30,447 nt of DNA, taken from contig SLAD01000341.1 in assembly GCA_007126995.1 (NCBI GenBank), positions 1 to 30,447 of the forward strand. Reading direction: 5' to 3'. Position 1 is the first letter of the stretch; each line of letters opens with the position of its first letter. The translations under genes and the position numbers were made by a program. Positions 10,480-15,672 of the stretch are shown piece by piece. The notes under the pieces were generated by a model. That model was not told the DNA's origin, did not search any database, and was given only the letters and a program-made list of their open reading frames with translations. The DNA comes from Kiritimatiellia bacterium (GTDB lineage: Bacteria; Verrucomicrobiota; Kiritimatiellia; SLAD01).

Positions 10480-11817
10480 ATGGCCACACCAATCATTATG
10501 CCGCGCCAAGGACAGTCCGTTGAAAGCTGTATCCTGATTGAGTGGGCGGTGAAACCGGGCGACACCGTGAAATCCGGCGATATCGTCGCCAGCATTGAAA
10601 CGGACAAAGCGACCTTCGATGTGGAATCACCCGCCGATGGCACCATCATTGAGTTGTTCTTCGAGGAGGGCGCGGATGTGCCGGTGCTGACGCACATTGC
10701 TGCGGTGGGCGAACCGGGCGAAGACGTGTCCGCGCTACGACCAGACAATGCGGCGCAACAACCTGAATTCGCCGCTCAGAAGACAGAAACCGAAACCCAG
10801 CGCACGGAGCGCCAAGACCAACAAGAGACCGCGCAACCGGCAACCCCCACCCCACAACCTGCAACCCATGCCGCCTCTCCGCGTGCACGCAATCACGCCG
10901 AGCGCGCAGGCGTACAGATCCAAGGGCTGGTCGGCAGCGGGCCGCGCGGGCGCGTGATCGAACGCGATGTGATCGCAGCGACTTCCGAGCGTGCCCGCAT
11001 GAGTCCGGCCGCCAAAGCGGCGGCTCGGGACGGCCTCACAGCCCCACCATCCGGCAGCGGCCCCGGTGGCATGGTATTGACAGCCGACCTACGAGCGGCC
11101 TCCGCTGCTGAGGCGCCACGCGAGATTCCGGTCAAAGGTGTGCGCAAGATCATCGCCGAACGCATGATGAAGTCGCTCACCTCTACGGCACAATTGACGC
11201 TGAACCGCTCGTTCGACGCAACCGCGATCCAAGCCTTCCGCGCCAAGGTCAAGCAGCACGGCGAACACTTCGGCCTGAGCGCCCTGACCATCAACGATCT
11301 CATCGTCTTCGCAACGGTCCGCACACTGCTGCGTCACCCTGAATTGAATGCCCATTTCCTCGGCGATCACATCCTGCAATTCCCGTCCGTGAACATGGGC
11401 ATTGCCGTCGACACCCCGCGCGGATTGATGGTGCCGGTGGTGCAAAGCGCGGAGCAAATGAATGTCACCGAACTCGCCCGCGCAATCCGCCCGCTGGCGA
11501 AAGCTTGTCAGGAAGGCCATATCGATCCCGATCGACTCACTGGCGGCACCTTTACGATCACCAACCTCGGCGCACTCGGCATTGAAAGCTTCACACCCGT
11601 ACTGAATGCGCCGGAGGTAGCGATCCTCGGTGTCGGAGGACTCTACCTCAAGCCCATCAAGGGCGCGAATGGCGTCGAACATGTCGAGGCGATGAACTTG
11701 AGCCTGACCATCGATCATCAAGCTGTGGACGGCGCACCCGGCGCACGTTTCCTGCAAGATCTGGCGAACGCTCTGGAAAATATCGAACTGCTCTTAAGCG
11801 AAAGCGTGAACGCATGA
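10480..11817 (+). CDS. Dihydrolipoamide acyltransferase (E2) of a 2-oxoacid/acetoin dehydrogenase-type complex
   Basis: 445 aa. One lipoyl domain (IETDKA), P/A/T/Q-rich linker, subunit-binding repeats, GGTFTITNLG and catalytic TIDHQAVDG. Confidence 0.95.
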   Translation: MATPIIMPRQGQSVESCILIEWAVKPGDTVKSGDIVASIETDKATFDVESPADGTIIELFFEEGADVPVLTHIAAVGEPGEDVSALRPDNAAQQPEFAAQKTETETQRTERQDQQETAQPATPTPQPATHAASPRARNHAERAGVQIQGLVGSGPRGRVIERDVIAATSERARMSPAAKAAARDGLTAPPSGSGPGGMVLTADLRAASAAEAPREIPVKGVRKIIAERMMKSLTSTAQLTLNRSFDATAIQAFRAKVKQHGEHFGLSALTINDLIVFATVRTLLRHPELNAHFLGDHILQFPSVNMGIAVDTPRGLMVPVVQSAEQMNVTELARAIRPLAKACQEGHIDPDRLTGGTFTITNLGALGIESFTPVLNAPEVAILGVGGLYLKPIKGANGVEHVEAMNLSLTIDHQAVDGAPGARFLQDLANALENIELLLSESVNA

Positions 11818-13221: not shown

Positions 13222-15672
13222 ATGCCGAAGACACTGATTGTAGACCCCGGGAAAGAACGCAAATTAGGGCAAATCGAGACGAAATCGATCCCCCTGAACC
13301 AATACCGCACCGGCATCGAGACCGAACGCGAGCAGTACGGCGACGATGCCCTGATCGGCATCTTCGAGGACATGTGCCTGATCCGCGAATTCGAGACGAT
13401 GCTGCACACCATCAAGACCGAAGGCGCGTATCAAGGCATCGCCTATGACCATAAGGGGCCCGCGCATTTATCGATCGGCCAGGAAGCCTCCGCCGTCGGC
13501 CAAGCATTTCTGCTCACTACGGACGACCACATCTACGGATCGCATCGCTCGCATGGTGAAATTCTCGCCAAAGGATTGTCGGCGATTCGCAAACTCGATG
13601 ACGAGCAGCTCACCTCGATCATGAAGAATTATCTGGATGGACGCTGCCTTTCGATTGTGGAGAAACATCACGATGGATCAACCCGCAACCTGGCGATCAA
13701 CTTTCTGGTATACGGCGCATTGGCGGAAATTTTCGGCCGGGAACCGGGCTTCAATCGCGGCCTCGGCGGCTCCATGCACGCGTTCTTTCCGCCGTTCGGA
13801 ATCTATCCCAACAACGCCATCGTGGGCGGATCGGCGGACATCGCAGCGGGGGCCGCGCTCTTCAAAAAGGTGAACCAGCGTCCAGGCCTGATCATCGCCA
13901 ACATCGGCGACGCCTCGATGGGCTGCGGACCGACATGGGAGGCGCTGAATTTTGCGGCGATGAGCCAGTTCCAAACGTTGTGGGACACGGCTCATCGCGG
14001 CGGCTTGCCGATCATCTTCAACTTCATGAACAACTTCTACGGCATGGGCGGACAAACCGCCGGCGAAACGATGGCCTACGAAGCGCTAGCGCGCGTCGGC
14101 GCGGGCCTGCGCGAGGACGCGCTGAATGCTGAACGGGTGGATGGGTACAATCCCATGGCCGTAGTCGACGCGATTCGTCGCAAACGCCGAATTATCGAGG
14201 AAGGGACCGGGCCCGTTCTGCTCGAAACCATCACCTACCGCTACTCCGGACATTCGCCGTCGGACGCATCGTCCTACCGCGTAAAGGAAGAGGTGGACAA
14301 GTGGCAGGAAGCCGACTCCATCGCCTGGTTCGGCAACGAATTGCAACGCGCCAGCTTGCTGGACGAATCCGGCCAGGAAGAAATCCGCGGGCGGGTACGT
14401 GAAATTGTCACGAAGGCGTGTCGACTGGCGGTGGACTTGGAGATTTCCCCGCGTATCGAAGCCGAGCGCATCGGAGACTACATGTTCTCGAATCGGAAAC
14501 GCGAGAAGTATGACGATCGCGAACCGGAGACACTGATTTCCTATGACGAGAACCCGCGCATCAAAAGTCTCCAGCGCCGGGTACGATCGGCCTTCGAAGA
14601 CGGCAAGCCGGTCCCCAAAAACAAAATGCTGCAGTTTCGCGATGCGCTCTTCGAAGCCATTCTGCATCGCTTCCATATCGATCCAACTCTGGTGGCGTAT
14701 GGCGAAGAGAACCGCGATTGGGGCGGCGCGTTCGCAGTCTATCGCGGACTGACTGAGGCCCTCCCCTATCATCGACTGTTCAACTCACCCATTTCCGAGG
14801 GCGCCATCGTCGGCACAGGTGTGGGCTACGGTCTGGAAGGTGGCCGCGCCCTGATCGAACTCATGTACTGCGATTTCATGGGCCGCGCGGGCGACGAAAT
14901 CTTCAATCAGCTCGCCAAATGGCAAAGCATGTCGGCGGGCATACTGGAAATGCCGGTCGTGCTGCGCGTATCGGTCGGTTCCAAGTACGGCGCCCAACAT
15001 TCCCAGGACTGGACGGCGCTCTGTCACCATATTCCAGGCCTGAAAGTCGTCTTCCCAGCGACGCCATACGACGCGAAAGGCATGATGAACACGGCCTTGA
15101 GCGGCAGTGATCCCGTGGTCTTCTTCGAAAGCCAGCGACTCTACGACATCGGCGAGCTGTTCGAGCCGGAAGTGCCGACCGGGTACTACGAAGTGCCGTT
15201 CGGCCCGCCCGCCCAACGTCGTTCAGGCAAGGACATCACCTTGATCACCATTGGCGCCACGCTGTACCGGGCCATGGAAGCGGCCGACCAATTGGAAGAA
15301 AAGTACGGGATGACGACCGATCTTTGGGATTGCCGCTCGATCAATCCGCTGGACTACGAACCGCTGGTAGAGTCGGTGAAAAAAACGGGGCGCGTGCTGC
15401 TGTCCTCTGACGCCTGTGAGCGCGGATCGGTCATGCAGTCCATCGCCGCCAACCTGACCGACCTCGCTTTCGATTACCTCGACGCGCCACCGGTCGTGGT
15501 GGGGGCACGCAACTGGATCACGCCCTGCGCCGAAATGGAGGACGCGTTCTTCCCACAGACATCCTGGATGCTGGACGCCATTCATGAACACATTCTACCA
15601 TTGCCCAATCATCAGCCAGCCACCCGGCAATCCGGGCTGGAACGATTGAAACGCGAACGACATGGAGTATAA
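13222..15672 (+). CDS. Fused alpha/beta ThDP-dependent dehydrogenase E1 (acetoin/2-oxoacid dehydrogenase family, atypical insertions)
   Basis: 816 aa. Alpha part: GQEA, SHRSHG, GGSMH, GDASMG...NN and [10 protein letters not shown]. Beta part: [23 protein letters not shown] and GAQHSQ. Confidence 0.92.

Follow-up and report, generated by a model that had tools for sequence, protein, structure and literature searches.

A fused-E1 lipoamide complex as the predicted core of a conserved deoxy-sugar module in Verrucomicrobiota and related bacteria

Results

We analyzed a 30,447-nucleotide stretch of DNA from a Kiritimatiellia bacterium (contig SLAD01000341.1 of assembly GCA_007126995.1, our contig C181; the whole stretch is hereafter called the window). 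In this window, three neighboring genes are predicted to encode a complete multienzyme complex dependent on thiamine diphosphate (ThDP) and lipoamide, composed of a lipoyl-bearing E2, an E3, and an E1 in which the alpha and beta parts are fused. The source is a metagenome-assembled genome of the Verrucomicrobiota (PVC group), with a size of 2.47 Mb in 429 contigs and a completeness of 71.5%. The complex is a third lipoamide complex of this genome, separate from the AceEF pyruvate dehydrogenase and from SucAB–Lpd, and its gene context predicts that it is controlled by a DeoR-family regulator and responds to sugar. Comparison with related genomes suggests that it forms the center of a conserved accessory gene module serving the catabolism of the 6-deoxyhexoses L-rhamnose and L-fucose, and probably reflects a step of deoxy-sugar breakdown that has yet to be described.

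An earlier sequence-only reading of this DNA had claimed that the complex represents a dedicated subfamily rather than a housekeeping pyruvate dehydrogenase (PDH), and had proposed a check of the genome for a separate PDH. When this check was run, canonical aceE–aceF and sucA–sucB–lpd genes were found on other contigs, i.e., the window does not hold the only PDH candidate of the genome. The homodimeric-type aceE (1427 bits, cut-off 860) lies on contig C270 and is followed by the start of aceF, with its lipoyl domain, at the contig end. The aceE and sucA–sucB–lpd genes all scored above their equivalog cut-offs, the truncated aceF fragment being the exception in this incomplete genome. The window E1 scored below the corresponding PDH equivalogs (187 vs. 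394 bits for E1 alpha and 225 vs. 321 bits for E1 beta). Because the genome encodes a separate AceEF, a dedicated role for the window complex is supported. It is most improbable that the complex is the housekeeping PDH of this lineage and that its position among sugar genes is incidental. The strong sequence conservation of E1 and the complete E1–E2–E3 set would suit such an identity, but aceE–aceF is present in the same genome, the DeoR and sugar-gene context persists through rearrangements, and true orthologues of the E1 occur in just 48 of 250 Verrucomicrobiota genomes (each at least 85% complete), with a patchy distribution within families. On the basis of aceE–aceF and this patchy distribution, the housekeeping identity was rejected.

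More than 8,000 homologues of the fused E1 were found, with identities of 72–85% in Kiritimatiellia, Opitutae, and Lentisphaerae and still 62–65% in the species-representative genomes of Spirochaetes, Planctomycetota, and Sumerlaeota. The E1 proteins of the module have 816–830 amino acids (aa), both of the insertions described below, and a full-length identity of at least 54%, and the window E1 fits this description. The E2 and E3 proteins adjoining E1 were only 27–41% identical in some loci, where their lineages have been swapped. Because E1 is so much better conserved across phyla (62–85%) than E2 and E3, it is predicted to be the constrained element that sets the specificity of the module. 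Every E2 lineage of the module scored best on acetyltransferase models.

The gene order DeoR–E2–E3–E1 was typical of the module and near-universal across relatives. We counted the neighbors in 42 well-flanked loci, which had at least 6.5 kb on either side of E1. DeoR and E2 were each found in 41 of these loci and E3 in 39, followed by an SDR-family dehydrogenase (28 loci), a long MDR-type dehydrogenase (26), a PHP-like protein (23), a RhaB-like or PfkB kinase (15), FucI, FucU, or a mutarotase (12), and a class II aldolase domain (6). In kind, the frequent partners are a PHP-fold phosphoesterase, dehydrogenases (an SDR that resembles sorbitol-6-phosphate dehydrogenase and either a long MDR or an MtlD-like enzyme), and a kinase of the RhaB-like or PfkB type. 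The window contains the full set, i.e., DeoR–E2–E3–E1 together with the PHP-like, SDR, MDR, and kinase genes. The sugar-operon setting claimed at the outset was borne out in the form of a conserved, DeoR-controlled sugar module. One locus (L110) carries on a single strand the genes FucI–kinase–DeoR–E2–E3–E1–PHP–SDR–MDR, followed further on by a class II aldolase and a FucO-like reductase; in another (L072), an MtlD-like dehydrogenase is fused to the PHP-like protein. The FGGY–DeoR and PHP–MDR–SDR layout of the window recurs in two relatives (L116 and L117). Aligned over its whole length, the window SDR shared 42% identity with the SDR part of an aldolase–SDR fusion of the RhaEW type that occurs in the same module. 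Class II aldolase-like proteins of 427–433 aa with a C-terminal extension also recur near the module (e.g., L110, 3161–4450 on the reverse strand; L120, 7324–8607 on the reverse strand; and contig C1 of genome G203, 3672860–3674035). Their best curated match was 3-oxo-tetronate-4-phosphate decarboxylase, at a score under the cut-off (165 vs. 250 bits).

In the 250 Verrucomicrobiota genomes, a fused E1 was detected in 82: 48 carried orthologues of the window clade and 34 carried a second clade, and no genome carried both. Of the partners, the PHP-like protein had the closest genome-wide association with the fused E1. It was present in 75 genomes, of which 74 also had a fused E1; eight genomes had the E1 alone and one had the PHP-like protein alone, so that 74 of the 83 genomes with either protein had both. 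RhaA was present in 76 of the 82 carriers of a fused E1 and in 68 of the 168 non-carriers, and RhaA or FucI (including FucI-like proteins) in 80 of the 82 carriers and 96 of the 168 non-carriers. The PHP-like gene adjoins RhaA in at least five genomes. This pattern of coupling recurred inside several families (e.g., 3/9, 3/11, and 3/5, with identical members). The sequence-only reading had placed the complex in a sugar operon, directly between deoR2 and fucI. The sugar module itself is conserved, but adjacency to fucI was rejected as a defining context: FucI was found in the flanks of 3 of the 42 well-flanked loci, and fucI beside the complex was seen in the window and in L065, L067, and L110. 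The link to rhamnose is at least equal, and the association with RhaA at the genome level is stronger than the adjacency to FucI. The window genome encodes both isomerases, with FucI in the window and RhaA on a separate contig (C296; L092, 3527–5647). There, RhaA (657 bits) stands beside a stand-alone RhaE-like class II aldolase domain of 271 aa, in a rhamnose locus that also has a GH31 glycosidase and a sugar transporter of the MFS family. A FucI-like paralogue (340–490 bits, under the fucI cut-off of 850) was observed in 17 of the 250 genomes, 11 of which carry the window E1 clade.

The second clade of fused E1 (L093–L100) has about 766 aa and is 36–39% identical to the window E1, with the order DeoR–E1–E2–(E3). 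Its DeoR is 45–55% identical to the DeoR2 of the window, and RhaA and the PHP-like protein are both present in all 34 of its genomes. Possibly, the two clades substitute for each other in the same function. An AlphaFold2 model of the PHP-like protein had a pLDDT of 91.5, and its best match among solved structures was 2yb1 (TM-score 0.74, normalized to the target). A set of HxH, E, H, D, and H residues was invariant. Judging from the model, the protein appears to belong to an uncharacterised family resembling the PHP metal phosphoesterases.

The three proteins have the features of the 2-oxoacid/acetoin dehydrogenase type of multienzyme complex, namely the E1 domains, a lipoyl E2 with its catalytic histidine, and an E3. 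The fused E1 of 816 aa (13222–15672, forward strand) combines in a single chain the E1_dh, Transket_pyr, and Transketolase_C domains. Its catalytic residues are retained as His344 (GHS), Glu526 (PISEGA), and His593 (AQHSQ), and were invariant in 27 family members. Two insertions had been claimed for this protein, and alignment to the human PDH E1 alpha located both. The first, of about 44 residues (13585–13716, forward strand), falls between human residues 106 and 109, and the stretch originally quoted (RKLDD...TRNL, E1 residues 123–157) lies inside it. The second, of 12 extra residues, lengthens the ThDP motif GDAS...NN (13963–14004, forward strand), in which GDA replaces GDG and the spacer from GDA to NN is 38 residues, compared with 26 (our own count) in the human protein. 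In the AlphaFold2 model of E1 (overall pLDDT 86.5), the first insertion forms two ordered helices (residues 127–146 and 154–170, pLDDT > 90) and the second a short helix, and the beta half superposes on 1um9_B with a TM-score of 0.90. Both insertions were kept in all 88 full-length orthologues aligned; the canonical E1 alpha genes of this phylum, which are split, lack them, and the second fused-E1 clade has them in modified form. The alignments indicate that these insertions and the E2 motif DHQAVDG are conserved features of the family and not chance. Judging from the known ThDP fold, the loop that joins the helix and the strand of the GDG...NN motif should be distant from the cofactor. Because of this distance, the insertion in this loop is weak evidence for a remodelled substrate pocket.

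The E2 (445 aa; 10480–11817, forward strand) has lipoyl, E3-binding, and 2-oxoacid_dh domains, with the lipoyl motif ETDKA at residues 40–44 and DHQAVDG at residues 412–418 (11713–11733). Its best NCBIfam models were acetyltransferases of the PDH type, both at scores below the cut-offs (280 vs. 722 bits and 277 vs. 445 bits). The DHQAVDG motif had been singled out as unusual. It is present in the window, and E2s of the DHQ type were found in about 50 PVC loci; as a property of the module it does not hold, because E1s 63–65% identical to that of the window are paired with DHR or DHC E2s elsewhere. DHQ was therefore ruled out as a functional signature and is a signature of a clade only. The E3 (448 aa; 11814–13160, forward strand) exceeded the TIGR01350 cut-off (510 vs. 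409 bits) and has the redox motif CLNEGC and the C-terminal motif HPTVSE.

The reported gene order, deoR2–E2–E3–fused E1–fucI, was reproduced exactly by the open reading frames (ORFs), which form a compact run on the forward strand with a mutarotase as the last gene. The run begins with deoR2 (9693–10466, forward strand; HTH_DeoR and DeoRC domains), the conserved first gene of the module, and continues after E1 with the L-fucose isomerase gene fucI (15714–17480, forward strand; NF008220, 1048 bits, cut-off 775) and a sugar mutarotase gene of the TTE1925 type (17500–18402, forward strand; most likely start ATG at 17500, after GGAGG). From deoR2 to the mutarotase, consecutive genes are never more than 61 bp apart: deoR2 ends 13 bp upstream of E2, E3 overlaps E2 by 4 bp, and fucI starts 41 bp past E1. 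On the forward strand here, sigma-70-like promoter matches were confined to 9622–9663, directly 5′ of deoR2, and between 9693 and 18402 no terminator-like site was found on this strand. For these reasons, the six genes are likely to form a single transcript.

The remaining module genes flank this run. A partner sub-operon contains deoR1 (5576–6406), a RhaB-like FGGY kinase gene (6434–7927, forward strand) that scored 452 bits on the rhamnulokinase model TIGR02627 (cut-off 528) and only 132 bits on fuculokinase, and a HAD protein gene (7924–8565). On the reverse strand are the gene for the PHP-fold metal phosphoesterase-like protein (4199–5473), which has the AlphaFold2 fold and invariant residue set described above; the gene for the long MDR-type dehydrogenase (2637–4310 as the longest ORF, the true start being uncertain and probably near 4200); and the gene for the SDR (1828–2772; PRK12384, 313.6 bits, cut-off 307), which resembles sorbitol-6-phosphate dehydrogenase and RhaW. 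The long MDR-type dehydrogenase had an ADH_N domain only and matched no NCBIfam family. Proteins of this type have about 520–560 aa (604–607 aa in Opitutales) and seemingly contain an extra segment of about 170 residues between the catalytic and Rossmann parts. Between the kinase/HAD sub-operon and deoR2 sits a PaaX-like gene (8664–9470, forward strand) with a long perfect palindrome downstream (near 9529–9570). The sugar operon is followed by surA–pdxA–rsmA in the classical order (18669–21518, forward strand); pdxA exceeds its equivalog cut-off and so looks like a housekeeping gene, not a part of the sugar pathway.

Discussion

We tentatively propose, with somewhat less than even confidence, that the E1 cleaves a keto-sugar intermediate in the manner of acetoin dehydrogenase, with an acyl-CoA as the product; the substrate, the type of cleavage, and the nature of the acyl unit are all inferred. 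In this scheme, an isomerase and a kinase would yield L-fuculose- or L-rhamnulose-1-phosphate, and the dehydrogenases, perhaps with the phosphoesterase, would turn the sugar phosphate into a keto-sugar or methyl-ketol intermediate. E1 would split this intermediate at its carbonyl, as acetoin dehydrogenase does acetoin; the acyl unit bound to ThDP, most likely acetyl, would be oxidized onto the lipoyl-E2 and leave as acyl-CoA, and E3 would hand the electrons to NAD+. The proposal is favored because the complex is accompanied by dehydrogenases of the polyol-phosphate type, by ketose kinases, and by a phosphoesterase, with DeoR proteins as regulators, because AceEF would make a second pyruvate-specific complex redundant, and because acetyltransferase models give the best scores for all E2 lineages of the module. 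A more specific version, which we regard as doubtful, is that the complex oxidatively cleaves a phosphorylated or dephosphorylated 6-deoxy-ketohexose derivative to acetyl-CoA and a C4 unit, bypassing lactaldehyde; the derivative would arise from fuculose- or rhamnulose-1-phosphate through the SrlD-, MtlD-, or SorE-like dehydrogenases and the PHP phosphoesterase. An oxidative transketolase acting on a phospho-ketose is one possible reading.

Several observations weigh against ketol cleavage. The 250 genomes are related, so the co-occurrence counts overstate independence, and 12 of the 42 well-flanked loci had no sugar dehydrogenase inside 6.5–8 kb. The module is present in about 45% of the genomes with RhaA or FucI (80 of 176), as would be expected if it served a variable branch further down the pathway (the lactaldehyde branch). 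The E1 retains all residues expected of a 2-oxoacid E1, and its sequence is compatible with pyruvate as a substrate. Class II aldolase-family genes were found in 46 of the 48 carriers of the window clade (missing only in G128 and G215), some modules themselves hold an aldolase or a RhaEW-type fusion, and the window genome has RhaA with its RhaE-like aldolase. With these aldolases, the classical aldolase route is available to the carriers, and the complex may work at a later step than this route. A generally "aldolase-independent" pathway is unsupported in view of the 46 carriers. No genome of 251 scored above the cut-off of the fucA equivalog TIGR01086, a model too narrow to inform on this point. 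Further, RhaEW, whose type of fusion the window SDR resembles (42% identity to the SDR half), yields L-lactate (PMC3870299), and the ketol-cleavage scheme would leave the role of the PHP phosphoesterase unaccounted for.

Some of these observations would instead suit a sugar-induced second PDH, in which E1 is a true 2-oxoacid dehydrogenase making acetyl-CoA. Pyruvate would be supplied from the L-lactaldehyde released by an aldolase, by way of L-lactate formed by the RhaW-like SDR, or another 2-oxo acid would be formed. The catalytic set is the same as that of PDH E1, human PDH E1 alpha is the nearest alpha subunit of solved structure, the E2s resemble acetyltransferases most, and both the aldolase genes of the carriers and the resemblance of the SDR to the RhaEW half fit this route; RhaEW forms L-lactate in vitro, and some rha regulons reach pyruvate (PMC3870299). 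We nevertheless consider a second PDH rather unlikely, since it would be redundant beside AceEF in this genome, gives no role to the co-occurring PHP phosphoesterase, long MDR, and MtlD-like dehydrogenases, and does not match an E1 with conserved insertions and with scores under the cut-offs of the PDH equivalogs. That E1 takes L-lactaldehyde directly, the complex oxidizing it to lactyl-CoA, seems improbable. We know of no E1 enzyme with an aldehyde as its principal substrate, and the formation of the enamine by deprotonation is slow in ThDP chemistry. The PHP-like and polyol-phosphate dehydrogenase partners would again be left over, and locus L110 already encodes a FucO-like lactaldehyde reductase. 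There is a published proposal for a similar setting, since lactaldehyde oxidation was put forward by comparative genomics for Athe_0702-4 in a DeoR-regulated rhamnose locus of Caldicellulosiruptor bescii (PMC8579813); these genes are likened to ours by their description and setting. The fates of lactaldehyde are known to vary (PMC3870299), and the occurrence of the module in less than half of the RhaA/FucI genomes fits such variation. Ketol cleavage remains the reading that we favor.

The complex is a known kind of machine, and its variant and pathway context are widespread and uncharacterised. Fucoidan, pectins, and other polysaccharides rich in fucose and rhamnose make up major pools of carbon, and Verrucomicrobiota, Kiritimatiellia, Lentisphaerae, and Planctomycetota are specialist degraders of them. 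The fused-E1 complex occurs in about one-third of the sampled Verrucomicrobiota (82/250) and tracks RhaA/FucI and the phosphoesterase almost perfectly. If the cleavage of a 6-deoxy-ketohexose derivative is true, it would constitute an undescribed route for fucose and rhamnose carbon in Spirochaetes and PVC-group bacteria that degrade polysaccharides in marine and anoxic settings. Identification of the substrate would either add a new class of lipoamide-complex reaction (sugar-ketol cleavage) or explain the disposal of lactaldehyde, and would also correct the widespread annotation "2-oxoisovalerate/pyruvate dehydrogenase."

Comparison With Known Systems

The acetoin dehydrogenase system (AcoA/AcoB/AcoC/AcoL) shares with the window complex an E3, a lipoyl E2, and a PDH-like alpha/beta ThDP E1. 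This system is accessory, is induced by its substrate, and coexists with a housekeeping PDH, and we predict a similar standing for the window complex. Its chemistry, in which a ketol is converted to an acyl-CoA and an aldehyde, is the model for the mechanism favored here. In contrast to acetoin dehydrogenase, alpha and beta are fused into a single chain in the window E1, which also has the two conserved insertions. The catalytic domain of the window E2 is of the standard 2-oxoacid_dh kind, and the match of this protein to the AcoC model NF011457 is limited to the lipoyl domain (70 vs. 307 bits). The regulator is a DeoR rather than AcoR, and the surrounding genes are those of rhamnose and fucose, not butanediol and acetoin.

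The best solved-structure matches of the window E1 were PDH E1 proteins (human PDHA1/PDHB and Geobacillus stearothermophilus PdhAB): the alpha half matched 1ni4_A at 105 bits, and the beta half matched 1um9_B and 1w85_B at about 186–190 bits, with a TM-score of 0.9. The GHS histidine, the beta glutamate, and the beta histidine are common to both, and the window E2 is nearest to acetyltransferases. The heterotetrameric PDH E1 differs in that the window chain is fused from alpha to beta, has the insertions of 44 and 12 residues, and reads GDA for GDG and HR for YR; moreover, the window E1 and E2 score below all PDH equivalog cut-offs, and AceEF is encoded separately. DXS and transketolase have a homologous single-chain ThDP fold (TM-score 0.5–0.66) and handle ketol sugar phosphates, and a cleavage like the reverse of the DXS reaction is formally what the favored model needs. 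However, the window E1 is far under their cut-offs (dxs, 50 vs. 466 bits; transketolase, 67 vs. 488 bits), and neither enzyme has a lipoamide partner.

We found no published study of the fused-E1 module in the literature, the sole parallel being the remark on Caldicellulosiruptor (PMC8579813). Like the window complex, Athe_0702-4 is an acetoin-dehydrogenase homologue in a rhamnose locus regulated by a DeoR-family protein (RhaR2); as far as the published description allows comparison, it differs in having three subunits instead of a fused E1 and in belonging to a Firmicute (PMC8579813). The RhaEW (YuxG) fusion of an aldolase and an L-lactaldehyde dehydrogenase (PMC3870299) has the same architecture as the fusion that occupies the equivalent position in other module loci, and the window genome resembles the RhaE/RhaA setting in having a RhaE-like aldolase beside RhaA. 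Compared with RhaEW, the window SDR is a stand-alone protein that scores higher on the sorbitol-6-phosphate dehydrogenase model, and organisms with RhaEW do not need a lipoamide complex.

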